NCBI GenBank assembly: GCA_964541305.1
Contig: CAZIPE010000006.1
Coordinates: forward strand, 1,957-65,956
Reading direction: 5' to 3'
Length of the DNA: 64,000 bases
From: an uncultured Candidatus Saccharibacteria bacterium
GTDB lineage: Bacteria > Patescibacteriota > Saccharimonadia > Saccharimonadales > UBA7683
The notes under the pieces are model-generated. The model saw only the letters and a program-made list of their open reading frames with translations. It was not told the DNA's origin and searched no databases. Positions 4,688-45,092 of this stretch are shown here, piece after piece (the stretch's first letter is position 1; each line of letters begins with the position of its first letter). The position numbers were made by a program, and so were the translations under genes.

Positions 4688-5986
4688 TTAGATAACTTTT
4701 TTCCCGCCCATGTACGGCCATAGTACCTCGGGCACCTTCACTGTACTGTCCTTTTGCTGATTATTTTCTAGTATGGCTTTAAGTATTCTGCCCATCGCAA
4801 AAGCTGTTGCATCATTAGTATGAACGAATTCAATTGAACCATTTTTGCGCTTTGTGCGTGTTTTCAAACGACGCGCCTGATAGTCAGTCATATAATCCGC
4901 CGTGTGAGTTTCGCGGTAGGCGCTCTGTGCTGGCATCCACGTATTAATGTCTACACCTTGGGCATTGGGTTTACCTATATCGGCGGTGCATTTTTGAATT
5001 AATTGATAAGGCAATCCTAGCAACTGCATTAAATGTTCTTGCAAAGCAACTAAAAGCTTATGTTCTTCAAGGCCTGTTTCGGAAGTTGAAAATACTTCCA
5101 TTTCCATTTTGTCGAACTGATGCATTCTAAAAATGCCCTCAGTGTCTTTACCGTAAGAACCGGCCTCGCGACGGAAACTCGTTGAGTAAGCAACGTATCG
5201 AATTGGTAGTTCTGACTCTTCTAAAATTTCATCCATGTACATTGTGCACATGCTGTGTTCGGCGCTGGCATTCATCCAAAGTTCATCATCTGCAAGTTTA
5301 TAGGTAACTTCTTGAGCGTCTAGTCGAGCAGATGCTTCGTAAGGTTCGGTCTTCACCATCGCCGGGGGCAGTACTGGCACAAAAGGTGTTGGCTTTAAAT
5401 CGAGTTTATTTTCTTTAATCAGCTTCTTTATAACTGCTTCGTCGGTAACCGTATCAATAACAAGTTGCATAATTGCTAACTGGAGCTTAACAAGATCGCC
5501 TTTTATGTACGCAAATCTCGCACCAGCAACTTTTGCCGCCCGCTCTTTGTCGATGATATTTTTGGTTTTACCAATTTCACTTTCACTTTTAGGATCAAAT
5601 TCAAATACGGGCTTTTCGCCTACCGTTTTTACAATCTGATTCTCATCTTCGCTAACTCCAACCGGTACTGTATCTAAAGCGACATTCGGGACTGCTTTCA
5701 ATAGCGCCATATATTCTTTTTCGGTGGGTTCGAGCCGTACTTCTAGTTCGCCTAGGATTTCTTTTATTCTTTTACCTTCGGCAATAAGTTCAGTAGATGG
5801 CTGGCCATTCTTCATTTGAGCGGCGGTTTCGTTACGTGCCTTTCGAAGTTTTTCAACTTCTTGCATTAATTCACGGCGCTTGCTATCAACCGTAAGAAGT
5901 CTGTCAACATCAACTACTACGTTTTTGTTCTTAGCTGCCTCTTTTACTTTTTCGGAATTCTCGCGGATGAACTGAATGTCTAGCAT
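4688..5986 (-). CDS. serS: seryl-tRNA synthetase
   Basis: Class II SerRS with N-terminal coiled coil and FRREAGS motif. The start is set at MLDIQFIRE (ATG 5984-5986). The extra MGYNKD codons in the track ORF actually spell a GGGTATAAT promoter. Confidence 0.93.
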   Translation of the reverse strand: MLDIQFIRENSEKVKEAAKNKNVVVDVDRLLTVDSKRRELMQEVEKLRKARNETAAQMKNGQPSTELIAEGKRIKEILGELEVRLEPTEKEYMALLKAVPNVALDTVPVGVSEDENQIVKTVGEKPVFEFDPKSESEIGKTKNIIDKERAAKVAGARFAYIKGDLVKLQLAIMQLVIDTVTDEAVIKKLIKENKLDLKPTPFVPVLPPAMVKTEPYEASARLDAQEVTYKLADDELWMNASAEHSMCTMYMDEILEESELPIRYVAYSTSFRREAGSYGKDTEGIFRMHQFDKMEMEVFSTSETGLEEHKLLVALQEHLMQLLGLPYQLIQKCTADIGKPNAQGVDINTWMPAQSAYRETHTADYMTDYQARRLKTRTKRKNGSIEFVHTNDATAFAMGRILKAILENNQQKDSTVKVPEVLWPYMGGKKVI

Positions 5987-5992
5987 ATCTTT

Positions 5993-5998
5993 ATTATA
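5993..5998 (-). promoter_or_regulatory. -10 box (GGGG-TATAAT) 6 nt upstream of the serS ATG; implies a leaderless mRNA
   Basis: The minus strand reads GGGGTATAATaaagatATG, and there is no SD sequence between the box and the start codon. Confidence 0.5.
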
Positions 5999-6028
5999 CC
6001 CCAAACCCGCAGGTCGTGCCCATGTATA

Positions 6029-6904
6029 TTATTGTAAAAATAGTGAATCAATCTGTTTTTTTACATCACTAAATTTTAGTATTGTTTGGGGCTGTTCAAT
6101 AGATGTCTGCCCTGTATATGTGGTTGGCTTGAGAACGATTATCGTAGCTTCATTCTTGAGCTGTATTTCCTTCAAGCTACCCTCTTCGTCCATTGCTATG
6201 AAGAGTTTCTCACTTTTGCCAAAGGAGTTGTTGCATTCGTTTGTGTTCTTGCTTTTTCCGAAAACTGCAGCTATAAATTCATCTGTTTGATCATTTGGTG
6301 ATAGTTCATATCTCACCACTTGTGAACCATCAAGTGTAATTCGATCTTCGCTTACTAGCGTGAGGAACGGATGTTTTTTAAAACTCGCTCTTAATAACTC
6401 TTCTTTTGTATCGTAGCCTAAGAGTGACTTCCAGCACTGTATCGATTGAGAAACGTCAGTTTCTTGATCTAATTCAATCCATTTATTTTGATATTGTTTT
6501 ACGAGAGGTTGAATGTTTGCTGAAATAGACCGTGAAAGTGGATCGTCTCCTAAGTTATCGGCTATGTCCGTGGCGTTGAGTATTTTAAGATAGCTTTTTC
6601 CATCGGCAGAGATTACTTCAACCTTAATGGAATCTTTTGCACCGCTCAAAAGTGATACAGACGCACTGGTTTTGCTAGCATTTTTGTTTATAGTTGTCTG
6701 AAAATCTGCTGATATCGGATAAGGACTATCTGTGATCAGTTTGCCACTAAAATCTACCTGGTCAGATGAAAATACCTGTACTGTTTTTATAAGTGTATCT
6801 TCAAGTTTATTTGATTTGGCTATCTGTAGCTGCAGAAAAAGCAATCCCGCAATTATTACTACCGTGATTACAAGACCCACGACAACAAGCCATTTTCTAC
6901 GCAT
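6029..6904 (-). CDS. hypothetical membrane-anchored/secreted protein
   Basis: 291 aa with an N-terminal hydrophobic anchor (WLVVVGLVITVVIIAGLLFL). I recognised no family motif. Confidence 0.6.
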   Translation of the reverse strand: MRRKWLVVVGLVITVVIIAGLLFLQLQIAKSNKLEDTLIKTVQVFSSDQVDFSGKLITDSPYPISADFQTTINKNASKTSASVSLLSGAKDSIKVEVISADGKSYLKILNATDIADNLGDDPLSRSISANIQPLVKQYQNKWIELDQETDVSQSIQCWKSLLGYDTKEELLRASFKKHPFLTLVSEDRITLDGSQVVRYELSPNDQTDEFIAAVFGKSKNTNECNNSFGKSEKLFIAMDEEGSLKEIQLKNEATIIVLKPTTYTGQTSIEQPQTILKFSDVKKQIDSLFLQ

Positions 6905-7442
6905 TTTTAAATCTTTCTCTTAATACAGTAATCCAATATGGTAGTGTTGTTTTGTGTTTTTCGCCCGATAAAATTCGTTCTTCTAACTGATCGATACTCA
7001 TCCACCATGCATCTTGATAATCCTCTTTGCTGTAGTTTTCTGGCGCTTTTTCAGTACGATACTCGTATAGACTCATGACGCAACCAAAGTCGTCAAATAC
7101 CTTTTTACCTACTAGTATGAGTTCTTCGGCTTTCACTTTTAAGCCTAGTTCCTCACTCATCCCGCGAATAGCTCCATCAATATGATCCTCGCCACTTTGC
7201 ACATGCTCAGCCATCGAAAAATCAAGGCCGTCAGGTGCAACCTTACGCCAGGGTTGTCGTTTTGGAATCCAAATCTGGTTTTGAGAATTGACTAATATAC
7301 AGGCAGTGCCACGAAAATATTGTCCTTTTTTAACATATGACTCTGAATCTACGTGATGCGCCTCGCGCTCAACCGTGCCTACAACGTTGTCGTTAGTATC
7401 CACGAGATCAAGCAGTTCATCGTCTTCTTCAGCGTGTGTCAT
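6897..7442 (-). CDS. NUDIX family hydrolase
   Basis: 181 aa with a Nudix-box-like segment, GEDHIDGAIRGMSEELGL. Confidence 0.65.
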   Translation of the reverse strand: MTHAEEDDELLDLVDTNDNVVGTVEREAHHVDSESYVKKGQYFRGTACILVNSQNQIWIPKRQPWRKVAPDGLDFSMAEHVQSGEDHIDGAIRGMSEELGLKVKAEELILVGKKVFDDFGCVMSLYEYRTEKAPENYSKEDYQDAWWMSIDQLEERILSGEKHKTTLPYWITVLRERFKNA

Positions 7443-7445
7443 ATC

Positions 7446-8813
7446 TTACTCTGTTCTCAATGCCTCTACGGGATCAAGCTTGGCCGCCTTTCGGGCTGGA
7501 AGCATTCCTGCGAGCACTGCAACCAACATCAAACCTAAGACTAAGCCAATAACTGGTAGCGGTTCAAATATCAACAACTTTTCACCCTCACCCAGTTCGA
7601 TTGTTTTAGTAATCCAAGGATTGAGTAGCGTACCCAGCACTATAGCAAATCCCGCACCGAGCATACCACCAAGTAAACCTATCCACGCCGCCTCGAAGCG
7701 AAATAGCCATGCCACGTGACGCCTTCTCATGCCGAGCGCCTTCATTAGGCCAATTTGCTGAGTACGCTCAAGCACACTAATATACTGCGTGTTCACTATC
7801 CCAAAGACCGACGCAATGACTGCCAAGAACGCAAAACCAATTACAATACCCTGCAAAATACTTATAAACTGCAGGAGGAACTTTTGGGTGTCTTCAACAG
7901 AAAGCGTCTGAAAACCACGTGATTTAAGCTCGTCTTGAACGGCCTTAAGCTTTTCTGGATCTTCGCCGTTCTTCACCTTGACGTACACCGAGGGGAACTT
8001 TCGGTAGTCTGATGTACCTTTGGTAGATATATCATTCAACCGCAACGCCTCGTCATTACTAATGTACATATAGAGTTCTGTACCTGGTTGTGCCGTGACG
8101 GGTTTTTTCAGAACCGCCATAACCACAAATTCTTCAACTACTATATTCGAATTACTCAGCTTTTCTAACTGATCAGGCGTTGCACCCTGAGCTAGTTTTT
8201 GGGCAATTGCCTTAGTATCAAGGGGTTTGCGTACCGCCACTTCTATCTTTTTCCCAATTGCTTGTTCAGCTGAACCAAAGCCAAGTGGTTCAATATATCC
8301 TTCTGGTAAAAGTAGTCTGTTGTTCTGTAGATTCTTTGGTATGCTCCCAGCTAGCGTTTCAGGTTTTTGAGCAGGGCTATAGGCTTGAAGCGTAGCAATG
8401 TACTTTTTTGAACCTTCTCGTGTGACGTAGTTTGCATTAACTGCAACGCCTTCACGGACAGATTCCACACCATCAACCTTGCGTAGCTCGTCAACGTCAC
8501 TTTGATCTAATCGCTTTATTTGAGTGATTGCTCCTGAATTACTAGACGACGTACCAAAGTTCGGGTCATACTCGCGTGGTTTGCTCGTATCTCCATTACC
8601 AATAATTTGCTCGTCTTTCGTCACTATTAACTCAGCAGGATCAAAGTTATCGCTAATAACTTGGTTGATAAATGCTTTCGTTCCGGTACTTGCAGCCAAT
8701 GTTAGCGTGAGGGTAAATGCACCCACCCCAATCGCAAGAGCCGTAAGTAGCGTGCGAATTTTCGCTTGCTTAAGACTTCGACCAGCTCGGCGGACGATAT
8801 CAAGGGTTTTCAT
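7446..8813 (-). CDS. ABC transporter permease, FtsX/MacB type
   Basis: 455 aa: N-terminal TM helix, a large extracytoplasmic domain, then 3 C-terminal TM helices. Its stop overlaps the start of the upstream ATPase gene by 4 nt. Confidence 0.85.
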   Translation of the reverse strand: MKTLDIVRRAGRSLKQAKIRTLLTALAIGVGAFTLTLTLAASTGTKAFINQVISDNFDPAELIVTKDEQIIGNGDTSKPREYDPNFGTSSSNSGAITQIKRLDQSDVDELRKVDGVESVREGVAVNANYVTREGSKKYIATLQAYSPAQKPETLAGSIPKNLQNNRLLLPEGYIEPLGFGSAEQAIGKKIEVAVRKPLDTKAIAQKLAQGATPDQLEKLSNSNIVVEEFVVMAVLKKPVTAQPGTELYMYISNDEALRLNDISTKGTSDYRKFPSVYVKVKNGEDPEKLKAVQDELKSRGFQTLSVEDTQKFLLQFISILQGIVIGFAFLAVIASVFGIVNTQYISVLERTQQIGLMKALGMRRRHVAWLFRFEAAWIGLLGGMLGAGFAIVLGTLLNPWITKTIELGEGEKLLIFEPLPVIGLVLGLMLVAVLAGMLPARKAAKLDPVEALRTE

Positions 8814-9505
8814 TTCTTTCCACCCTTCTTGTTATTTTCAATTTTTACTAATTTACCATCTTTTATGTAGATTCGCATGTCGCACTTCGCCGCCAATTCA
8901 TTGTCATGTGTCACCACAATAAGCGTTACTTTCTTCTTTTTGTTATAGCTAAACAGTAAATCTTCAATTTTCGCACCGGTGACAGAATCGAGATTACCCG
9001 TTGGCTCATCTGCAAATAGAATTTCAGGCTCACCTGCAATAGCTCGCGCAACCGCCAAGCGCTGTTTTTGACCACCAGAAAGATTTTTTGCCTTTTGCTT
9101 CTTTTTTTCCAGCAGACCCACCTGATCAAGTGCCTTTTCAATAAGTTCTTTGCGTTTTTGACGTGGATAACGAGCTATCTCAAGAGGTAGACTTACATTA
9201 TCGTAACAACTTTCGTTACCTTGCACAAAAAAACTCTGGAAGATAAAACCAATTTTCTCACAACGAAATGAATCAACATCTTTATTCTTCAGTTTTAATA
9301 TGTCGACACCATCAATAATAATCTCTCCGTGTTGCGGATGGTCGAGCCCGCTGATAGCGTGCATTAAAGTACTCTTACCCGAGCCCGACTTCCCCACAAT
9401 CGCCACCGAAGAACCCTTTGGCACCTTAAAATTTATATCATCAAGTGCGTGAAACAATTGTTTTTTTCGGCCATACGTTTTCGAAACACTCTTTACTTCA
9501 ATCAA
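8810..9505 (-). CDS. ABC transporter ATP-binding protein (MacB/LolD-like)
   Basis: Walker A GKSGSGKST, signature LSGGQKQR, Walker B ILFADEPT. The start codon appears to be TTG. Confidence 0.92.
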   Translation of the reverse strand: MIEVKSVSKTYGRKKQLFHALDDINFKVPKGSSVAIVGKSGSGKSTLMHAISGLDHPQHGEIIIDGVDILKLKNKDVDSFRCEKIGFIFQSFFVQGNESCYDNVSLPLEIARYPRQKRKELIEKALDQVGLLEKKKQKAKNLSGGQKQRLAVARAIAGEPEILFADEPTGNLDSVTGAKIEDLLFSYNKKKKVTLIVVTHDNELAAKCDMRIYIKDGKLVKIENNKKGGKK

Positions 9506-9567
9506 GACCCCTCCACTTTCGTTATGTCTATGATTATAAAGTGTTTACTTAAAAATTGCGATGCTTA

Positions 9568-10356
9568 TTATGGTCGGAGTGTGCCGGCAAACACTTGCCA
9601 CGCCAAGGCTGATTTTGCTACTAAACTTAAGATGATATAGGCCCGTTCACCGTACAAGTAGTCTGACCATTTACCCACCTTCTTGTACTGCAATATCATG
9701 TTTATTGCAAAACAATTGAAGAACACAAAAATTGAGACGAATATCCAATATACAAACGTTGGTGGTTTACTACCGTCTTGTGCTGAGAGGAAGAAATACA
9801 ATGCAACCACTAACCATGGGACGATACCTGCTAGACAACCAATCCAGTAAGTAATCCACTTCGGTTTTTCAAGACCTTGATTACTTACCTCCATAGCTAA
9901 GCCAAGCAGGTTCATTATGGCAGTGAGTGCAAATATCATACCCAGGCTAGCCAAGTCATATATACCCACTAACATAGAGATTGCTACCATCATTGTGCTA
10001 GCTGATACTGAATACTCAATCCATCGTGCTTTATTGATGCCCTGCTTCAAATTCTTTTCATACGTCTTTCGGTAGACAGTCGCTATTAACAGATGCGCTA
10101 GCGACGATATCACGAGAAAGCCGACAATCAAATACGCCAATGGAATTTCAAATAGCACTTTATTAGCAGGATCTAACTTTTGCGTAGCTTCATTGAATGA
10201 TAAAAAACTTCCGATAACGGGTAGTTTAAAATCTGTGCTTATAAGCAAGATAATTACCGCCTGAACACCGTGTAGCCCAGTCATCACTAAATTAAACCTG
10301 TGTAATTTTTCCAATTTTGACTTGGTAGACTGACTCTTTTTTACCATATACCCCAC
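9568..10356 (-). CDS. heliorhodopsin (7-TM retinal protein)
   Basis: 262 aa with 7 hydrophobic helices. The C-terminal GERAYIILSLVAKSALAWQVFAGTL is near-identical to the TM7 Schiff-base-lysine segment of heliorhodopsin 48C12 as I remember it. RWIEYSVSAS (counterion Glu), GCLAGIVPW and the two conserved His positions are also present. Confidence 0.78.
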   Translation of the reverse strand: MGYMVKKSQSTKSKLEKLHRFNLVMTGLHGVQAVIILLISTDFKLPVIGSFLSFNEATQKLDPANKVLFEIPLAYLIVGFLVISSLAHLLIATVYRKTYEKNLKQGINKARWIEYSVSASTMMVAISMLVGIYDLASLGMIFALTAIMNLLGLAMEVSNQGLEKPKWITYWIGCLAGIVPWLVVALYFFLSAQDGSKPPTFVYWIFVSIFVFFNCFAINMILQYKKVGKWSDYLYGERAYIILSLVAKSALAWQVFAGTLRP

Positions 10357-10415
10357 TTTCTTTCTTCTATACTAGTCAGCAAATCCTAAAAACACAAGCA
10401 TTACGTACGACCAAG

Positions 10416-11948
10416 CTACGCTATAAATTTGAGTCGGTTAATGAGCCAATCACGCGGAAGCAGACTTAAGAACCAGCCGGCACGTGGTCCGGAGTCTTTA
10501 CCGATAAGAGCTTGGTACAGCGTAGTAAACAGCTCCTTCGGCTCAAGTTCAACCTTTTCCTTGAATTCATATATTGCTTGATGAAACCACGCCCCGTCAG
10601 CATCTTCAGGAGCTTCACTAATTTTTTGTGCCAACTGTGCAAGATATAGCTTCTGAGCATCATTAAATTTACCCGAATCCACCGTATCTTGAAGTTCAAA
10701 CTTCACCTCTTCGGGTGCTTTTTTTTGAAGCCATGAATCAATAAATTTTAGCTCTTTCTTAAGAATATCTGCGTCGGCTTCTGCCGTTTCTTTGTGCTCA
10801 GTTCGCTTAATAACTTCAATAGTTTTACTCACATCTTTAAGAGATGCTTGGTAACTTGCAACTAGGTGCGTAAATGGAATATTACTAGCTGTTGGCTCGT
10901 CTACCCCGTGTAGACATAGATCAATAAGCTGCTGCTCTTCAGGAGTTTTGTCTTTCTTGGCAAGTAATTGTGCGAAATCATCAAATAAACGTATGAGCGT
11001 ATCTGTTTCGTCAAAATATAGCATTTTTTCGGGCCCCGCTCTAAGCAAAAAGAACCAGATAATTTCAGGTGGCATAAGTTCAAGAAGTTCTGCAGCCGTT
11101 ACAACGTCGCCTTTACTCTTACTCATTTTTTTTGTTTCGCCCGTTTTGTTGATAAATGCGTACGGAACGGGATATGGCGCCTCACTTCCAAAAACTTTTT
11201 GAACAATCACTTTACCTGTGTCGTATGATCCACCTTTAGTGGCATGATCACGACCAAATGGCTCTACGTGAACGTTCATCATCCACCAGCGAGCAGGCCA
11301 ATCGATTCTCCAATTTAGTTTTACTTGACCATCTGCATAGCTAATTTCCGCCTCTTTATTATCGGCTGAAATATAGGTAATCTTCCTCTGCTCAGTATTA
11401 ATAGCCTTGAATTGACGATTTTTAAGCCGATTGTTTTCAATTACCTGGATTGGTGACCACTGTTCATCGAGACTGCGACCAGAGACGTCCTCTAGTATTT
11501 TTCTTATTTCAGTGCTGTTATCGAGCGCTTTTTCAATAGCTGGAACGAAGTAACCCTCACGATACTTCTCGTGAGCACGCACTACTTCCATACTCAAACC
11601 CATTTCTTCAGCAGCATCCAACAATGCCTGTACAAAAAAATCACCATAAGATTTGTCTGCTCCATCGGGCGATGGCACGTCACACAGTGGCATCCCAAGA
11701 TACTTCTCAAAACTAGCATCTACATCAGCAGGCACTTTCCTAAATATATCTAAGTCATCGCAAATATGCAGGTGTCGTGCATCACGCCCACGACGTCGAA
11801 TCTCAACAGCTATAATCTCGGCCGTTAAAACTTCCCTGAGCGTACCAAGGTGGTATGTCCCTGATGGTGAAACACCCGATGAGACAACGATTTCACCATC
11901 AGGGTGTCGCTCGAGTACTTCATCTACAATTTTATTCAACCACTGCAT
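10416..11948 (-). CDS. lysK: lysyl-tRNA synthetase, class I
   Basis: 510 aa with a class I Rossmann fold: HIGH-type SGTYHLGTLRE and KMSKSKG. This is not the class II LysS architecture. Confidence 0.9.
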   Translation of the reverse strand: MQWLNKIVDEVLERHPDGEIVVSSGVSPSGTYHLGTLREVLTAEIIAVEIRRRGRDARHLHICDDLDIFRKVPADVDASFEKYLGMPLCDVPSPDGADKSYGDFFVQALLDAAEEMGLSMEVVRAHEKYREGYFVPAIEKALDNSTEIRKILEDVSGRSLDEQWSPIQVIENNRLKNRQFKAINTEQRKITYISADNKEAEISYADGQVKLNWRIDWPARWWMMNVHVEPFGRDHATKGGSYDTGKVIVQKVFGSEAPYPVPYAFINKTGETKKMSKSKGDVVTAAELLELMPPEIIWFFLLRAGPEKMLYFDETDTLIRLFDDFAQLLAKKDKTPEEQQLIDLCLHGVDEPTASNIPFTHLVASYQASLKDVSKTIEVIKRTEHKETAEADADILKKELKFIDSWLQKKAPEEVKFELQDTVDSGKFNDAQKLYLAQLAQKISEAPEDADGAWFHQAIYEFKEKVELEPKELFTTLYQALIGKDSGPRAGWFLSLLPRDWLINRLKFIA

Positions 11949-12043
11949 ATTGGGCTTAATTATACCCTATCAACAGATATAAAACGAGTTGCGTGGTTCA
12001 TTAGGTGTACGTAAACGAATTAACTCATGGGCTGATTGATGGA

Positions 12044-12595
12044 TTACTTTTTCTCAATAGACTTTATAATCTTGATGAAGTCGTCCTGAAAATCCAAAAG
12101 GTTGATACTTAGCACCTTCTCGGCATACGCTTTGTCGTTTATCGAACGACTGTCATCATAACTGACATGAAACTGTACTATATACCCCTCGTTGTTGTTT
12201 CCATAAAATCCAGTTACTGAGGTTGTTGAATCTCCTAACTTCCTTCCACAAAATTTTAAGCCGTCTACCTGAAAAACCTCTGATCCGAGAGTTTTTCCGC
12301 AAGTTATTGACGAAACCGGTTTGCTGATAGCTTTTGAAATAGTGAGTGCCACACCAATGTCGCCAGTTATTGGGTGAAATACTGCGTTCTCGTCTGATTC
12401 TAAATAAACTTTTTCGGATAGAGATATCGTTTGGTAATCTTTATAGTACTTTAAAGAATACGTAGCACCACCCTTATTGGTGTACTCTATTTTTTTGAAC
12501 TTAAAAATATTTACATACGCATACATTGATAATCCGACAATCAAAATGAGTAGAAAGCCTAGAAATATAATGAACTTGATCTTCTTGTTTGCCAT
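12044..12595 (-). CDS. hypothetical membrane-anchored protein
   Basis: 183 aa with a single N-terminal TM helix (FIIFLGFLLILIVGLSMYAYV). Confidence 0.55.
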   Translation of the reverse strand: MANKKIKFIIFLGFLLILIVGLSMYAYVNIFKFKKIEYTNKGGATYSLKYYKDYQTISLSEKVYLESDENAVFHPITGDIGVALTISKAISKPVSSITCGKTLGSEVFQVDGLKFCGRKLGDSTTSVTGFYGNNNEGYIVQFHVSYDDSRSINDKAYAEKVLSINLLDFQDDFIKIIKSIEKK

Positions 12596-12664
12596 TTGAA
12601 GCTAGTTTAGCACAATCAATATAGAACTTGCGAAAAACCTTACAACTAGCTAGGCCTGAATTAT

Positions 12665-13120
12665 TTAGGCAATTTCTTGGAGTTCGTAGGTAGTTTTGCC
12701 GGCGGGGAGTTCAATTACTACTTTTTCACTAACTTTTTTACCCATAAGCGCCTGACCAATTGGTGATTGGTCTGAAATTTTAGACTGCGCGGGATCGGCT
12801 TCAACTGAATCTACAATATGATAGGTGACAGTTTTTCGACCACTCTTGAGAGTAACTTTATTACCAATGCTTACGCTATTTTTTGGAGCACGGCTCACAA
12901 TTTCAGTATTCGCTAAAATGTGGTTGATTTCATCCATGCGATTGTCAATTCGTTCCTGGTCTTCTTTAGCGCTGTGATATTCAGCGTTTTCGCTCAAATC
13001 ACCCTGATCGCGAGCATCTTTGATTGCTTCAATAACTAATACGCGCTTAGCGGTAAGATCTTTAAGCTCAGCCTTTAGCTCTGCAACGCCGTCTTTTGTA
13101 AGTTGAAATTCTTTTTTCAT
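12665..13120 (-). CDS. greA: transcription elongation factor GreA
   Basis: 151 aa with an N-terminal coiled coil (DLSENAEYHSAKE) and a C-terminal FKBP-like domain. Confidence 0.93.
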   Translation of the reverse strand: MKKEFQLTKDGVAELKAELKDLTAKRVLVIEAIKDARDQGDLSENAEYHSAKEDQERIDNRMDEINHILANTEIVSRAPKNSVSIGNKVTLKSGRKTVTYHIVDSVEADPAQSKISDQSPIGQALMGKKVSEKVVIELPAGKTTYELQEIA

Positions 13121-17263: not shown

Positions 17264-17962
17264 TTAAGCGCCGTATCGTCGCATACGCACCGCGTAATTA
17301 GCGAAGGCATCTTCTAGATCTTGTTCGCTAAATTCAGGCCATCGTTTCTGCGTAAAATACATCTCGGCGTACGCCATACGTGCCAACATAAAATTACTTA
17401 TCCGGTGTTCACCGCTAGTTCGAATCATTAAATCAATTGGCGGAATTTCTGGATGATACAGGTAGTTCACTACCACGTCCTCGTTAATTTTTTCTTCATT
17501 AATTCCCTCTGCAATAATTTTCTTTACAGCATCAGCAATTTCCCTCAAACCTCCGTAGTTAAAACAGAGCGCCAGCGTTCCTCCTGTATTATTCTTTGAA
17601 TCCTCTTCAACTTTGCGCAACGATTCAAGAACCTTTTTCGGTACTCTTTCCTCAATACCAAGCACCACTATTTTTATATTCTCTTTAATCAACTGTTTCG
17701 CATCTTTGGTGGCAATTTTCATGGCGAGATTCATAAGATAATCAACCTCCTCTTTAGTGCGATTCCAGTTTTCGGTTGAAAAAATGTATGCTGAAACAAA
17801 TTTCACACCCTTCTTAAATGCGGACTGTGAAATTGTCTTTAGATTATCGTAGCCCTTTCTGTGACCTACCAGCTTAGGTAAGTTATTTTCAGTTGCCCAA
17901 CGACGGTTTCCGTCGAGTATGAGGCCGAGGTGTTGAGGGATTGATTTAGTAGTTTTCAGCAT
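17264..17962 (-). CDS. uppS: isoprenyl transferase (undecaprenyl diphosphate synthase)
   Basis: HLGLILDGNRRWA and RTSGEHRISNF motifs. Confidence 0.93.
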   Translation of the reverse strand: MLKTTKSIPQHLGLILDGNRRWATENNLPKLVGHRKGYDNLKTISQSAFKKGVKFVSAYIFSTENWNRTKEEVDYLMNLAMKIATKDAKQLIKENIKIVVLGIEERVPKKVLESLRKVEEDSKNNTGGTLALCFNYGGLREIADAVKKIIAEGINEEKINEDVVVNYLYHPEIPPIDLMIRTSGEHRISNFMLARMAYAEMYFTQKRWPEFSEQDLEDAFANYAVRMRRYGA

Positions 17963-41402: not shown

Positions 41403-42365
41403 TTAGCTATCCTCGTCAACCAATAGCCAATCTATGAAGCGTGTATGCTTCCTAGATTGATGGTGCGCAACCAGTGACTTATAGCTTGAAGCGTTACGAA
41501 CAGTTAAACTAGTGATAATTTTGTTTCTGGCGGACACATCTAACCTTCGTCCATGAGTCCAAAGGTCAACTCCTAAATAAGAAGCTCCCCTGCTTACACG
41601 CTTTATGTTGTCAATATTTTTGTTAATTTCTAACCCAAGTGTATCTTTTAAGAAGTGCTCAGCACTATTGTGAATATCAATTATAGTTTGCCTTTTAATT
41701 GAAAAACATAACCAATCATCACCATACCTCAAATATGCATTGGGTTTTATATTGTACTTCATAAAACGATCGAACTCGTTTAGATAAATGTTTGCTAGGA
41801 TTTGACTGGTAAGATTACCTATTGGAATGCCCCTATTATTGCCAGAGCTACTGTGACTATCTATGACCTCATCCAAAAGCCACAAGGCTGTCGGGTCATT
41901 TACCCGTCGCCTCAACAATTGTTTCATAGTGTGCTTATCAACCGAATCAAATAACTTCGTTATATCCCCGCGCCACAACCATCCGTCCTTATATTGCCAC
42001 ATAAATTTCTGTGCTCTATCTATAGCGCCGTGCAAGCCTTTATTTTGTCTGCACGACCAAGCATCGTAAATAAAAGTCTTGTTCCAGATTGAAACTAAAT
42101 AGTCATAAAGTAAGCGATGAACTACCCTGTCACGAACAGATGCCACGGCGATATCTCTTCGTTTATTATCGTTGACTATCATATGTGCATAAGGACCGTG
42201 CTTATAAGTGCCTGTTTGAACCTCTGTGGCTAACTTAATGATATTATCCAGCAGATCATATTCAAACTCGACAATGGCTCTGCTAGCCTTTTTGCCTGTG
42301 CGAAAGGCTACGAATGAACGCCATACGTCTGCTAAACTGATACCTATGGAAGAATTACCTGTCAT
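41403..42365 (-). CDS. DGR-type reverse transcriptase
   Basis: 320 aa. IPIGNLTSQILANIYLNEFD (the DGR-typical xxxSQ motif) and YLRYGDDWL (YxDD). There is no maturase or endonuclease domain. Confidence 0.92.
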   Translation of the reverse strand: MTGNSSIGISLADVWRSFVAFRTGKKASRAIVEFEYDLLDNIIKLATEVQTGTYKHGPYAHMIVNDNKRRDIAVASVRDRVVHRLLYDYLVSIWNKTFIYDAWSCRQNKGLHGAIDRAQKFMWQYKDGWLWRGDITKLFDSVDKHTMKQLLRRRVNDPTALWLLDEVIDSHSSSGNNRGIPIGNLTSQILANIYLNEFDRFMKYNIKPNAYLRYGDDWLCFSIKRQTIIDIHNSAEHFLKDTLGLEINKNIDNIKRVSRGASYLGVDLWTHGRRLDVSARNKIITSLTVRNASSYKSLVAHHQSRKHTRFIDWLLVDEDS

Positions 42366-42684
42366 TACTATTGCCTTTGAAATTTACAAAAAATTGTTAG
42401 AGCTTAATACTAAGCTGGACAAAAAGTACCGATACTCCCTTGGTAAACAAACAGCAAAATATTGGTCTGACACCTTGGAGCAACTACTTTTAGCAAAACA
42501 CGCCCCCAAGCCGATGAAGGCAAGTTATTTACTTAGGGCAAACGCGCTCGCCGAAATGACATCATTGCACCTGCGAGCCATCCTTGAACTCAAACTCGCA
42601 AACGAAACAAATGTACTCAAAGTCCAAGCACGCCTGAGCGAGGCGCGCCGAATGATTGGCGGCTGGCTCAAAAGCGTGCACTAG
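42346..42684 (+). CDS. avd: Avd-like accessory variability determinant (four-helix-bundle protein)
   Basis: 112 aa from the ATG at 42346. It has a helical-bundle pattern, and the C-terminus SEARRMIGGWLKSV resembles the Avd and 23S-IVS protein family. It sits beside the TR and RT. Confidence 0.75.
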   Translation: MEELPVITIAFEIYKKLLELNTKLDKKYRYSLGKQTAKYWSDTLEQLLLAKHAPKPMKASYLLRANALAEMTSLHLRAILELKLANETNVLKVQARLSEARRMIGGWLKSVH

Positions 42685-42698
42685 ACTAACACCTACAC

Positions 42699-42811
42699 AC
42701 CTCACCGCGAGACGAGCATCGCCGTCATTCCCGGCATTCGAGTTGTTCAGGTTCGGCTTACCATTCTGGTTCACGTAGGAATTCGGCACAATCGACCACC
42801 TGTCAACCGTT
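42699..42811 (-). repeat. DGR template repeat (TR)
   Basis: 113 bp, direct repeat of 43115-43227. It carries 28 adenines on the minus strand and an AAY-rich frame. Confidence 0.92.
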
Positions 42812-43112
42812 GACTCTCCAAAGTATCCTGTTCACTTATAATCCGCAGAAAATAAGGACCACTCTTCTTTCAGCACCACTTATGACGCTAACACTGGAGA
42901 CCCGTGGGGTGTAAAGGGTTCTTGATGTACTTGTTTGCCGTAAAAAGAGCCACTTTCAATAGAAAGTCTTTTTAGGCAGATACAAGTAACAATCTATCCA
43001 GGGCACCGATAGGTGCTTCAAGCCTTTGGACTACTTACCCCGAAATTATGGTTCGTAAGTAGTTTGCTAGATAAAAGAAAAAGAACAAAGGAAAGGAGCA
43101 AAGTTAAAGGCT

Positions 43113-45092
43113 TTACCCCACCGCGAGACGAGCACCGCCGCCAACCCCGGCACACGAGCCGTGCAGGTCCGGCTTACCATTCCGGTTCACGTAGGAACGC
43201 GGCACAAACGACCACCCGACAACCGTTTTTGGCTCTAGGTCAAAATGCCTAATGTAGGTTTTATCGAAAGCGCTACTATCGTCTAATTTGTCACCCTGCG
43301 CTCGCAAGGCATGCCAATAAGTAACCGCGTCAAGTAAACTTGGAACTCGTGAGTGTAACTCAGGACGGCTGGCTTGGCGTTCACGTAGTAAGTGTACTTG
43401 TGTTTCTACCGGCTTATTACTAATCTCACCGTCATAACGGCTTGGTATGAGGCTCAAGCGAACAGGTGCTTCGCCACTATTGCCCGACCACTCAGGCCCA
43501 CCGTAACGACCCTTACGATATAGTTCATCATAGACGTAGGTTGTGTATGGCTGATCTTTGCCAAAGCTTTCCGCTAATGCAACGATTTGGGCTTCGCTAG
43601 CTTCAATGTTAGGTGTAGCCACTAGATTAAAACGGGCACCATTTTCTATCAGCTGCTCTACCAGATAGTCGTACGTACCGTTTGCTTGCCATTCCCTGTC
43701 TTTTGAAGCAAACAGTTTTTCAAGCTCATTTGGAGTTAATGCTGTTTCGTCCTTACGAAATAGACGTTGTTTTCCACCTAATTGCTCTGCGACTGTCTTG
43801 TATGCCGCAAACGCACTACTTAGTTGCTCACGGATACTTTCAGGCAATATACGGGCAAGTTCGGGCTTATCTCTATCACCACGTAATTGTCTAATCTCGC
43901 CTATGCGTGGGTCGTCTTCATAGCCAAAACCCTGTATTTCGTGGTCTAGTTCGTACAGGAAGCGCAGTTCCTCCGCACTTAACTCGGCGTCAGGATTAGC
44001 TGTAATGCGTTTTTCAATAGCAGTTAAGCGCTTCATATCCTCTGCTTTACGAATGTACTCTTCACCACCGGGCAAGTCTTTAAGACGATTCGCCGTAATA
44101 TCAGCCATTTCAGGTTCAAGTTCTTGCGCGGCATTTACGCCCCGAACTTCGGCAACTTCGCCCTGCTCCATACGTATAGCCACCCGTAGAACAGTATCTC
44201 TGTCCTTCTCATCACGAGTGTAGTACACGAAAAAGTCGCCACCCCTTAGTTGCATAGTTGCTGTGCTTTCACCAGCCGTACACCAACCGGTTCCGTGCCC
44301 TTGTAGCGAACCAGAGAGCCTGCGGGCTGTACGGGGGTCGTCAGTCTGATTAAACTTAGTCCACGAACCTCTAGTGTCTTTTCTTAACTCTGGGCTATCA
44401 GGCGTAACTTCCAAAACAGCGTGGGCATAGAGTCTACCGAAATTACCACTTTTAAGGAGCTTTTGAAGTTCTGCATCGTTAGCCCCGCCATTGACTTGCT
44501 CGCCTTGTACCCGTGCTTTGTTCAGCACATCATAGACGTAAGCTAAAGCTTCACGGTTTAGCTCGGGGTAGGGCGCGGTCGTACCACGACTACGTTTCTG
44601 AAACTCGCTTTTATCCTTGTCATATGTTCCCAGTTTTGTAACTGATGACCAGGTATAGCTCTTAAACCAGTCTGGATAGCCACCGTCATCACCGCCAAGG
44701 TACTCAACCCATTTACCAAGTCCTGCACGTTGGTCAGCTTGTACCGCCTCAATAATTTGATGACGCATTTCAGAGGTTATGTGAATAACGCCGTGGCCTT
44801 GTTCACGAGCTATCCGGCGTTGCAATTCAAAATAACTTTCAGGTACATCCTCAGCTTTAATGACGTGAGCATCTATCTGACGGTCTATACTACCTTGATC
44901 GCCAGTTAAAATGCCGTCATTTACGTACTCACGGTTAGCCAAAAATCCCAGGTGAGCCGAGATTTTGTCAGCTGGTTCATTAGGAATAGACTCGCCACCC
45001 TGACGTAAATAGCCAACTACTACCTCAACTTCATCAGATGAGTGCATCTGTGGATTTCTATCGTGGAGAAAGGAGCTCCCGGGACTTTGCAT
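43113..45092 (-). CDS. DGR target (variable) protein, 659 aa, C-terminal VR
   Basis: The ORF ends in ...GWSFVPRSYVNRNGKPDLHGSCAGVGGGARLAVG*. No N-terminal signal peptide or TM helix is visible. Confidence 0.88.
   Translation of the reverse strand: MQSPGSSFLHDRNPQMHSSDEVEVVVGYLRQGGESIPNEPADKISAHLGFLANREYVNDGILTGDQGSIDRQIDAHVIKAEDVPESYFELQRRIAREQGHGVIHITSEMRHQIIEAVQADQRAGLGKWVEYLGGDDGGYPDWFKSYTWSSVTKLGTYDKDKSEFQKRSRGTTAPYPELNREALAYVYDVLNKARVQGEQVNGGANDAELQKLLKSGNFGRLYAHAVLEVTPDSPELRKDTRGSWTKFNQTDDPRTARRLSGSLQGHGTGWCTAGESTATMQLRGGDFFVYYTRDEKDRDTVLRVAIRMEQGEVAEVRGVNAAQELEPEMADITANRLKDLPGGEEYIRKAEDMKRLTAIEKRITANPDAELSAEELRFLYELDHEIQGFGYEDDPRIGEIRQLRGDRDKPELARILPESIREQLSSAFAAYKTVAEQLGGKQRLFRKDETALTPNELEKLFASKDREWQANGTYDYLVEQLIENGARFNLVATPNIEASEAQIVALAESFGKDQPYTTYVYDELYRKGRYGGPEWSGNSGEAPVRLSLIPSRYDGEISNKPVETQVHLLRERQASRPELHSRVPSLLDAVTYWHALRAQGDKLDDSSAFDKTYIRHFDLEPKTVVGWSFVPRSYVNRNGKPDLHGSCAGVGGGARLAVG
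43115..43227 (-). repeat. DGR variable repeat (VR), last 37 codons of the target gene
   Basis: It differs from the TR at 17 positions, all of them TR adenines. The identical GC-rich 3' end (GCTCGTCTCGCGGTG) is IMH-like. Confidence 0.92.

Follow-up and report, generated by a model that had tools for sequence, protein, structure and literature searches.

The heliorhodopsin locus

The window analysed here, a 64-kb stretch of DNA, carries a heliorhodopsin gene situated between a class I lysyl-tRNA synthetase gene (lysK) and a MacB-type ABC transporter gene pair (Table 1). This arrangement had been given in the preliminary description of the locus, and both the coordinates and the Pfam and NCBIfam matches agree with it. 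The lysK, heliorhodopsin and ABC genes are co-directional, with gaps of about 60 bp, and there is a 4-bp overlap between the ATPase gene and the start of the permease gene. The position of lysK upstream of the heliorhodopsin gene is context only and carries no functional link. A promoter and terminator scan of positions 5900-12800 gave matches that did not exceed the expectation from shuffled sequence, none of them informative for the stretch from lysK through the heliorhodopsin gene to the ABC genes. Scans of the whole window for tRNAs and Rfam families returned no matches. A diversity-generating retroelement is also present, as a side finding.

Table 1. Features at and around the heliorhodopsin gene.
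Feature	Coordinates	Strand	Details
Hypothetical protein, 291 aa	6029-6904	minus	One half of the NUDIX accessory pair (6029..7442)
NUDIX hydrolase	6897-7442	minus	Other half of the accessory pair
MacB/FtsX-type permease, 455 aa	7446..8813	minus	MacB_PCD and FtsX domains; resident of the conserved block
ABC ATPase, LolD/FtsE/MacB type, 231 aa	8810..9505	minus	Downstream neighbour; resident of the conserved block
Heliorhodopsin CDS	9568..10356	minus	GTG start at 10356, giving 262 aa
Schiff-base Lys codon AAA, K248 (48C12 K241)	9613..9615	minus	Motif S244-L-V-A-K248, TM7; from alignments and sequence
Counterion codon GAG, E114 (48C12 E107)	10015..10017	minus	TM3; from alignments and sequence
Class I lysyl-tRNA synthetase (lysK)	10416..11948	minus	Upstream neighbour; Pfam PF01921, TIGR00467 382.8 bits
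UppS	17264-17962		Isoprenoid enzyme

The real start of the heliorhodopsin gene is probably the ATG at 10347, which would give a product of 259 aa, because every close homologue is 259 aa long and this ATG is preceded by AAGTGGGG, a Shine-Dalgarno-like stretch. An exact-sequence look-up with the 259-aa product found no record, the nearest cluster being 93% identical. The closest homologues in the databases show 63-93% identity; where a source is named, the label is Saccharibacteria, Patescibacteria or Nomurabacteria.

Family assignment and conserved residues

The strings on which the gene had initially been called a heliorhodopsin (GLHGVQ, SLAHLL, RWIEYSVSAS, GCLAGIVPW and SLVAKSALAWQ) are all found in the translation, and the profile search that had been suggested as a check bears the identification out, with a full-length match above the curated cutoff. 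Pfam PF18761 matched at E=3.1e-99 and 331.7 bits (cutoff 26.7), covering profile positions 1-242 of 242, and the NCBIfam equivalog NF038020, 'heliorhodopsin HeR', matched with 322.5 bits, its cutoff being 100. A sequence search of the PDB returned TaHeR (6is6) at E=6e-78 (phmmer) and 48C12 (6su3) at E=7.4e-55. The family match is far above chance level, and the fold and key residues agree with it. The ORF is a genuine, full-length and canonical heliorhodopsin.

The alignment with 48C12 that had been proposed places the SLVAK motif on 48C12 S237 to K241, with S244 and the Schiff-base lysine K248 invariant in 120/120 homologues, and places E114 on the counterion E107. Residues E114, S84, S118, H29 and H88 are likewise present and invariant across the 120 homologues, the two histidines matching H23 and H80 of 48C12; the TM1 and TM2 histidines named in the preliminary description are therefore in place, as is the GCLAGIVPW segment. 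Conservation in the alignment with 48C12 extends to N22, Y99, N108, R111, Y115, E156, Q223, Y233 and E237. Kovalev 2020 (PMC7049168) lists a structure-defined core of 37 residues, and the window protein is identical to 48C12 at 35 of them. The exceptions are I142, replaced by N, and Q213, replaced by M; both substitutions recur in TaHeR and in essentially all of the 120 homologues, and Met is a documented variant at 48C12 position 213 (PMC7049168). That the lysine, the glutamate and both histidines are invariant in 120 homologues argues for purifying selection. The motif for the predicted lateral fenestration, or carotenoid site, is also complete (Y170, C174, G177, F213, N214 and A217), as defined by 48C12 positions 162, 166, 169, 206, 207 and 210 in a preprint (Kornilov 2025; bioRxiv 10.1101/2025.11.27.691015).

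The AF2 model of the protein (pLDDT 90.0, pTM 0.84) has seven helices (11-39, 73-92, 109-129, 135-158, 168-193, 200-225 and 233-259) and a long AB beta-hairpin with strands at 44-55 and 60-72. In Foldseek comparisons the model aligned to TaHeR (6is6) with TM-scores of 0.91/0.95 and an rmsd of 1.7 A, and to 48C12 with a TM-score of about 0.88, against query-normalised TM-scores of at most 0.68 and 9-17% identity for type-1 rhodopsins. The predicted seven-TM fold is nearer to the solved heliorhodopsins than to type-1 rhodopsins. Assignment to another 7-TM family was considered and rejected on these type-1 scores and on the Pfam search, in which no competing match was found. Lys and Arg are unevenly distributed: the N-terminus together with the BC, DE and FG loops has 16 of them, and the opposite face (AB loop, EF loop and C-terminus) has three. 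By the positive-inside rule this supports an inverted topology, in which the N-terminus would be cytoplasmic and the C-terminus outside.

Genomic context of the heliorhodopsin gene

Housekeeping synteny around the locus is common to Saccharibacteria genomes assembled from metagenomes, and the heliorhodopsin gene is an insertion into the block UppS-RseP-CAAX-ProB-like kinase-ProRS-GreA-LysRS-ABC-MacB-SerRS-SecA. The LysRS slot of this block holds the class I enzyme in the window and a class II LysRS in close relatives, an in-place swap, and the ProRS type is likewise swapped in place among relatives. The portion GreA-LysRS-ABC-MacB-SerRS-SecA is common to loci encoding relatives of the MacB-type permease. 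Heliorhodopsin is carried by 0 of 80 such loci, 48 of which have enough flank to reveal one, and the intact LysRS-ABC-MacB-SerRS arrangement is visible in 35 of the 80; for the closest MacB relatives (L096-L098, 59-67% identity) the upstream flank is too short to be informative. The ABC pair is considered ancestral and independent of heliorhodopsin because these 80 heliorhodopsin-free loci keep the LysRS-ABC-MacB-SerRS-SecA block. The best explanation is that the heliorhodopsin gene is an accessory that entered a deeply conserved housekeeping block, and it very probably adjoins the ABC genes because of where it inserted and not because of a dedicated partnership.

A gene for DUF427 recurs beside heliorhodopsins in relatives of this locus. 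It lies immediately downstream of heliorhodopsin in P0001 (93% identity), P0012 and P0008, with gaps of -1, 12 and 16 bp, respectively, is found 86 bp upstream in L073, and occurs 2.4 kb away in the non-syntenic loci L011 and L018. Within the block it is present in 8/21 heliorhodopsin loci, compared to 1/80 blocks that lack heliorhodopsin (Fisher p=8e-6, a value that overstates the signal, since the loci are phylogenetically non-independent). Only the closest relatives with a heliorhodopsin have the NUDIX-hypothetical pair, which directly follows heliorhodopsin in P0004 (20-bp gap) and occurs in 0/80 of the heliorhodopsin-less blocks. Such observations could be explained if the heliorhodopsin, DUF427 (NTP_transf_9) and/or the NUDIX-hypothetical pair form a small accessory cassette in which one of the soluble proteins is the light-regulated partner of the heliorhodopsin, and if the window copy has lost DUF427. 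This is unlikely, however, as DUF427 is absent from the window and the NUDIX-hypothetical pair there is set apart from the heliorhodopsin gene by the ABC genes. The pair is, moreover, confined to three close relatives, and DUF427 is missing from the ten published heliorhodopsin-neighbour groups (PMC11109279). Similarly doubtful is the suggestion that a HeR-DUF427-NUDIX-hypothetical cassette arrived in this Saccharimonadia clade, inserting to one side or the other of an ancestral transporter of the MacB type, and that the uncharacterised DUF427 protein or the type VII ABC transporter itself is a new kind of light-regulated partner in an episymbiont borrowing its chromophore from the host. The recurrent, closely spaced pairing of heliorhodopsin with DUF427 in relatives is nonetheless a modest lead in the search for a partner.

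A second possibility is that the heliorhodopsin regulates the adjoining MacB-type ABC transporter in a light-dependent manner, in parallel to OcHeR, which activates the ABC exporter OmrDE (PMC11109279), but with a new class of transporter. Besides this precedent of heliorhodopsin-ABC regulation, the genes in the window run in the same direction, 62 bp apart, no terminator is predicted in that gap, and the MacB pair lies within the heliorhodopsin flanks of 12/21 block-sharing loci. It is missing in the other 9/21, and where present it stands on either side, downstream as in the window in six loci and upstream in six, at distances from 43 bp (L095) to 5.6 kb. A regulatory role of this kind is improbable given that permease relatives keep the block without heliorhodopsin in all 80 loci, and that heliorhodopsin occurs without an adjoining pair in close relatives such as P0004 (81% identity), L063, L069, L071 and L073. 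The approximately 59 loci outside the block also have no MacB-type pair beside heliorhodopsin, the only one being that of L022, around 8 kb away and on the opposite strand.

The conservation of ABC linkage across relatives, which the preliminary description had put forward as a check, did not emerge as a heliorhodopsin-specific signal from these permease loci, nor from the density of ABC ATPases, which is 0.295 per 10 kb near heliorhodopsin compared to 0.236 per 10 kb at 4-8 kb (p=0.35); enrichment of ABC genes near heliorhodopsins was rejected accordingly. In an unbiased census of neighbours within 4 kb of heliorhodopsin in 81 loci, no family exceeded 16 loci, and the leading cluster is made up of generic ABC ATPases joined by single linkage. 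The resemblance to OcHeR-OmrDE is that a heliorhodopsin gene adjoins ABC transporter genes on the same strand, but the two differ in transporter type and gene order. OmrDE, from an actinobacterium, is a heterodimer of half-transporters in which TMD and NBD are fused, and its genes lie upstream of helR (PMC11109279), whereas the window has a separate ATPase and MacB/FtsX permease, encoded downstream, in a block that is kept in heliorhodopsin-less genomes. Two further loci from Patescibacteria (L033 and L037) do have true OmrDE-like pairs directly upstream of heliorhodopsin. Since insertion into the conserved block explains the adjacency seen in the window, it should not serve as evidence of a heliorhodopsin-MacB partnership.

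Retinal supply and proposed function

The initial observation that no carotenoid or retinal gene lies in the window is upheld by a Pfam scan of 54 ORFs (all 53 of at least 120 aa, plus ribosomal protein L21), in which none of the crtE, crtB, crtI, crtY or blh/brp families was found. UppS is the sole isoprenoid enzyme among the scanned ORFs. The NUDIX protein was considered as an IPP isomerase, something that would have offered an isoprenoid link, and was rejected, its best NCBIfam match scoring 35.5 bits against a cutoff of 127. Rhodopsin-bearing Saccharibacteria have been reported without blh, with retinal from hosts proposed (PMC9296517), genomes with only heliorhodopsin are reported mostly to have no full retinal pathway, and an external source of chromophore is already stated for heliorhodopsins generally (Shihoya 2019). 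A chromophore obtained from the host or environment, as had been proposed for this gene, is thus a reasonable view that is already published. Because the lineage is reported without blh, the retinal is most likely scavenged, and it would enter through the lateral fenestration described above.

By comparison with homologues, all-trans-retinal would form a protonated Schiff base with K248, the stabilising residues being the counterion E114 together with S244, S118 and S84. The adjoining Schiff-base cavity, predicted to be water-filled, would be lined by H29, H88, N108, R111, Y115 and E237. As in the heliorhodopsins characterised from prokaryotes, light may then drive a slow photocycle without net ion pumping. 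In its long-lived activated state the protein probably modulates a second protein by way of its positively charged cytoplasmic loops, which would make it a light sensor or regulator. Overall, we estimate a probability of roughly 85% that this is a functional heliorhodopsin of the sensor type, using scavenged retinal and inserted in a housekeeping block.

Alternatively, the protein could transport ions, as does the proton-transporting viral V2HeR3, or could mainly harvest light energy instead of sensing. Proton transport has been described for some viral heliorhodopsins, and a 2025 preprint (bioRxiv 10.1101/2025.11.27.691015) argues for two-antenna, carotenoid-binding heliorhodopsins, the motif for which is complete here. 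The transporters, however, form a divergent and mostly viral subfamily 2 with altered core residues and without the fenestration/carotenoid site, whereas the window protein has a subfamily-1-type core (35/37) and 52% identity to the non-pumping TaHeR. Bacterial heliorhodopsins have also been reported not to pump (PMC11109279), and transport or energy harvesting is highly improbable for this protein. That the gene is a non-functional relic, whose apoprotein never meets retinal, might be supposed from the lack of retinal genes among the scanned ORFs and from the lineage being reported without blh (PMC9296517), but is scarcely credible for an intact, full-length ORF whose catalytic and core residues are kept in 120 homologues down to 63% identity, in a family that is widespread and whose members rapidly bind exogenous retinal according to the literature, reportedly within tens of seconds for the TaHeR apoprotein.

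Comparison with known heliorhodopsins and rhodopsins

Relatives of this heliorhodopsin are encoded in at least 578 stretches of the species-representative genome collection, and of about 98 CPR heliorhodopsins reported, 80 belong to Saccharimonadia, SLVAK being the motif seen most often (PMC9166423). The window gene resembles these CPR/Saccharimonadia heliorhodopsins (Chiriac et al. 2022, PMC9166423; Bulzu et al. 2021) in lineage and in its SLVAK TM7 motif, and the published reading of a sensor or oxidative-stress role with no retinal pathway fits it unchanged; it differs in sequence, the best cluster being 93% identical. Homologue names and housekeeping synteny place the host in Patescibacteria, most likely in the class Saccharimonadia, and a monoderm host with a reduced genome would be consistent with this; the monoderm state itself is taken from the literature and not from the window. 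Heliorhodopsins of Saccharibacteria, the SLVAK motif, the missing blh and the scavenging of retinal have all been published already. The window gene is one more sequence in a populous, already described Saccharibacteria/CPR group, and the questions it raises, the function of heliorhodopsin and the source of its retinal, are the standing ones for the entire family.

Amongst solved structures the closest relative is TaHeR (6is6, 7clj and 7u55), at 52% identity, from Thermoplasmatales archaeon SG8-52-1. It has the same core residues as the window protein, among them the N and M at 48C12 positions 142 and 213, and its SLVAKSALAWQVFAGTLRP C-terminus is identical in the window protein; its host is archaeal, whereas the window protein is bacterial (CPR). 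The lining of the fenestration, on the other hand, is as in 48C12 (I178 and F210) and unlike that of TaHeR (F and A), a lining associated with a tighter fenestration opening (Kovalev 2020, PMC7049168). The founding member 48C12 (6su3 and 6uh3) has the same fold and shares K241, E107, H23, H80, S237 and the Schiff-base cavity set, but is only 42% identical overall, with I142 and Q213 replaced by N and M in the window protein.

The SacR rhodopsins, type-1 proton pumps of Saccharibacteria (Jaffe et al. 2022, PMC9296517), belong to the same phylum and present the same problem of a retinal protein without blh, for which the proposed solution is retinal from Actinobacteria hosts, taken up via an opening in the apoprotein (PMC9296517). 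They are, however, members of a different family (PF01036), being outward proton pumps with a DTS motif, and their topology is opposite to that of the window protein.

Identification of the heliorhodopsin

To the extent possible from sequence and predicted structure, the protein is established as a member of the heliorhodopsin (HeR) family. PF18761 (Heliorhodopsin) is its sole Pfam match (E = 3.1e-99, 331.7 bits, entire profile covered), with 322.5 bits it also clears the cutoff (100) of the NCBIfam equivalog NF038020, "heliorhodopsin HeR", and the best sequence matches in the PDB are TaHeR (6is6, E = 6e-78), the closest solved relative, and the founding heliorhodopsin 48C12 (6su3, E = 7.4e-55). 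These profile searches bear out the family proposed in the preliminary description, the gene lies exactly where it was placed there, and every string quoted (GLHGVQ, SLAHLL, RWIEYSVSAS, GCLAGIVPW and SLVAKSALAWQ) occurs in it. Since the close homologues are all 259 aa long and a Shine-Dalgarno-like stretch, AAGTGGGG, precedes an ATG at 10347, the real product is probably the 259-aa protein starting there; residue numbering follows the 262-aa version.

Conserved residues, predicted fold and proposed mechanism

The structurally defining residues listed by Kovalev et al. 2020 (PMC7049168) were mapped through an alignment that joined the window protein to 48C12, to TaHeR and to its 120 top-ranking homologues in the database, and 35 of the 37 positions are the same as in 48C12. 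The alignment confirms the Schiff-base lysine (48C12 K241, here K248), the counterion (E107, here E114) and both histidines (H23 and H80, here H29 and H88) that had been picked out by eye. S237, S76 and S111 correspond to S244, S84 and S118, and the cavity set (N16, Y92, N101, R104, Y108, E149, Q216, Y226 and E230 in 48C12 numbering) is kept, as are P40, P172 and W246. The two departures, I142 to N149 and Q213 to M220, are common to TaHeR and all or nearly all of the 120 homologues, and Met at position 213 is a frequent variant (PMC7049168). That every core residue is strictly conserved over the 120 homologues argues that the gene is functional rather than a relic.

An AlphaFold2 model built on an alignment of 38 sequences (mean pLDDT 90.0, pTM 0.84) contains seven helices and, as is characteristic of heliorhodopsins, a long AB beta-hairpin. 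In Foldseek it superimposes on TaHeR with a TM-score of 0.91/0.95 (rmsd 1.7 A) and on 48C12 with about 0.88; with type-1 rhodopsins its query-normalised TM-score does not exceed 0.68. Lys and Arg number 16 on the N-terminus plus the BC, DE and FG loops and 3 on the opposite face, which by the positive-inside rule fits an N-in/C-out topology. The fenestration and carotenoid-site motif described in the Kornilov 2025 preprint (aromatic side chains at 162 and 206, small ones at 166 and 210, G169 and N207) is complete (Y170, C174, G177, F213, N214 and A217).

A standard prokaryotic heliorhodopsin is the best-supported reading. We infer that the protein binds retinal and is photochemically active. 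Retinal would be attached to K248 with E114 as counterion, and a slow photocycle would proceed without net pumping, signalling to or modulating some partner protein through the basic cytoplasmic loops. Retinal would be taken up from outside via the fenestration, by which a xanthophyll antenna might also be acquired.

Relatives and retinal supply

Relatives of the protein form 7,939 clusters at E < 1e-20, the nearest being 93% identical, and those with names come from Saccharibacteria, Patescibacteria or Nomurabacteria. At least 578 stretches in a species-representative genome collection encode relatives; the best 80 of these are almost all from Saccharibacteria/Saccharimonadales genomes assembled from metagenomes, with which the housekeeping genes around HeR are syntenic at 50–85% identity. 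The host genome accordingly belongs to the Patescibacteria and most likely to the class Saccharimonadia. One relative lies on a 988-kb contig, consistent with small genomes. One Saccharimonadales contig (DASTXH010000031.1) carries two HeR genes about 54 kb apart, and in locus L061 a further heliorhodopsin-like match, highly divergent (24% identity), lies about 1.2 kb downstream of the HeR gene. Identity and synteny disagree between loci L002–L060 and L061–L077: many loci without any neighbour common to the window encode HeR 62–70% identical to the window protein, whereas several with the whole housekeeping block encode HeR only 56–61% identical, which hints that HeR genes have been exchanged between Saccharibacteria or have evolved at uneven rates.

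The absence of retinal and carotenoid genes from the window was borne out by a Pfam scan of 54 ORFs (all 53 of at least 120 aa, plus ribosomal protein L21), among which no such family was found and UppS is the sole isoprenoid enzyme. The ORFs are chiefly housekeeping (SecA, SerRS, LysRS, GreA, ProRS, RseP, UppS, RRF, EF-Ts, S2, L31, RF1, PrmC, HtrA, ParAB, IleRS, class II RNR, NrdR, FtsZ, FtsA, Map, Adk, PriA, Def, Fmt, IF-2 and S1), and tRNA and Rfam scans of the window gave no matches.

The interpretive points of the preliminary description are correct, but they are already in print. Heliorhodopsins were found predominantly in Saccharimonadia in a screen of CPR genomes (80 occurrences), with SLVAK among the commonest TM7 motifs (Chiriac et al. 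2022, PMC9166423). Bulzu et al. 2021 described a Patescibacteria cluster, noted that heliorhodopsin-only genomes mostly lack a full retinal pathway, and proposed exogenous retinal capture with sensory or oxidative-stress roles. Jaffe et al. 2022 (PMC9296517) found no blh in rhodopsin-bearing Saccharibacteria, reported rapid uptake of external retinal, proposed Actinobacteria hosts as its source and drew an explicit comparison to the opening of TaHeR.

Linkage to the ABC transporter genes

Only the linkage of HeR to the MacB-type ABC pair was possibly new, because regulation of an ABC transporter by a heliorhodopsin is known solely for OcHeR-OmrDE (PMC11109279). The window block (UppS-RseP-CAAX-kinase-ProRS-GreA ... 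SerRS-SecA) is common to only 13 of the best 80 loci; the others have none of the window's HeR-flanking genes, and they include those of highest HeR identity after L001. An unbiased neighbour census of 81 loci found no family in more than 16, and ABC ATPases are not enriched near HeR (0.295 per 10 kb within 4 kb vs 0.236 per 10 kb at 4–8 kb, p = 0.35). Among close relatives (74–93% HeR identity), the order HeR-ABC-MacB recurs in P0011, P0013, P0014, P0015 and L001, and in P0008 with a DUF427 gene inserted; it is reversed (ABC-MacB-HeR) in P0012, an adjacent pair is not seen beside HeR in P0004 (HeR-NUDIX-hypothetical-SerRS), P0002 or P0001, and P0017 has an unrelated context. The pair lies within the HeR flanks in 12 of 21 loci sharing the housekeeping block (six downstream, six upstream) and not in the other nine.

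Reciprocally, no heliorhodopsin was found, even weakly (E up to 10), in any of 80 metagenomic loci that carry genes for relatives of the MacB-type permease (42–67% identity), a sample more distant than the HeR-bearing clade in which 48 loci have enough flank to show one and the three closest have too short an upstream flank to be informative. LysRS-ABC-MacB-SerRS is present in 35 of them, in most cases preceded by GreA and ProRS and followed by SecA; the LysRS-to-ABC gap ranges from 10 bp to 4.4 kb, and that between MacB and SerRS is 48 bp at the median and up to 2.8 kb. Both edges of the ABC pair are therefore places where an old, conserved block tolerates insertions, and a single sub-lineage has HeR at one edge or the other. 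The adjacency is explained by where HeR landed and should not be read as functional; the linkage does not hold as a feature specific to HeR.

Candidate partners and other features

The most interesting of the alternative readings, though one of low probability, is a DUF427 or NUDIX protein as partner. DUF427 abuts HeR in three relatives (gaps of -1 to 16 bp) and occurs in 8 of the 21 block-sharing HeR loci (12 of 96 HeR loci overall) vs 1 of the 80 HeR-less blocks, a statistic that is phylogenetically confounded; the window itself has no DUF427. The gene may be associated with heliorhodopsin, and the neighbour groups published for the family do not include it. The NUDIX-hypothetical pair was seen only in the closest HeR-bearing relatives (P0004, P0012) and is absent from all 80 HeR-less blocks. 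IPP isomerase is the best NCBIfam match of the NUDIX protein, yet was rejected at 35.5 bits against a cutoff of 127.

In the slot between GreA and HeR, the LysRS class has been replaced in place among close relatives: class I, as in the window, is found in P0002, P0012, L061, L071 and L073, and class II in P0004, P0008, P0011, P0013, P0014, P0015 and most HeR-less blocks. A single slot likewise holds three ProRS forms among close relatives. Elsewhere, the window carries a diversity-generating retroelement whose 113-nt repeats are 85% identical, with 17 of 17 mismatches at adenines of the template repeat (A>G 11, A>T 4, A>C 2), and a giant ORF that probably continues past the window end.

Features of the window and of related loci (L-numbers)
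Feature	Location	Strand	Remarks
Heliorhodopsin ORF	9568..10356	-	262 aa from GTG
NUDIX hydrolase and 291-aa hypothetical	6029-7442		downstream of ABC genes
Class I LysRS	10416-11948		TIGR00467, 382.8 bits
Class II LysRS	L091:6425-7945, L081:6351-7862, L084:6387-7898		NF001756, 475.6 bits
ProRS, 412 aa	13312-14550		bacterial type without INS editing domain; TIGR00409 in two stretches
ProRS, 569 aa	L091:3468-5177		full bacterial type with tRNA_edit
ProRS, 475 aa	L092:2106-3533		archaeal/eukaryote type; TIGR00408, 521.8 bits
DUF427/NTP_transf_9, 100 aa	L087:1976-2278		gap to HeR -1 bp
DUF427/NTP_transf_9, 100 aa	L090:8797-9099		gap to HeR 16 bp
DUF427/NTP_transf_9, 100 aa	L095:6793-7095		gap to HeR 12 bp
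DUF427/NTP_transf_9, 100 aa	L073:7615-7914		gap to HeR 86 bp
Diversity-generating retroelement	41403-45092	-
Reverse transcriptase, 320 aa	41403-42365	-	retroelement
Template repeat	42699-42811	-	retroelement
Variable-protein ORF, 659 aa	43113-45092	-	no Pfam or NCBIfam match; variable repeat at 3' end
Variable repeat	43115-43227	-	3' end of 659-aa ORF
Giant ORF, >1,656 aa	59023-63993	-	six DUF285 repeat stretches, 630 bits; histidine-kinase-type HATPase_c at C-terminus

Comparison with OcHeR-OmrDE

The published HeR-activated exporter (PMC11109279) differs from the arrangement in the window: it is an actinobacterial heterodimer of fused half-transporters, with its genes upstream of helR. In two related loci, L033 and L037, a tandem pair of genes for fused TMD-NBD ABC exporters (580 and 609 aa; 579 and 625 aa) stands directly upstream of HeR (gene at 8001), ending 27–50 bp before it. 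Their layout is that of the OmrDE-OcHeR operon described in print, but both loci come from metagenome-assembled Patescibacteria genomes.
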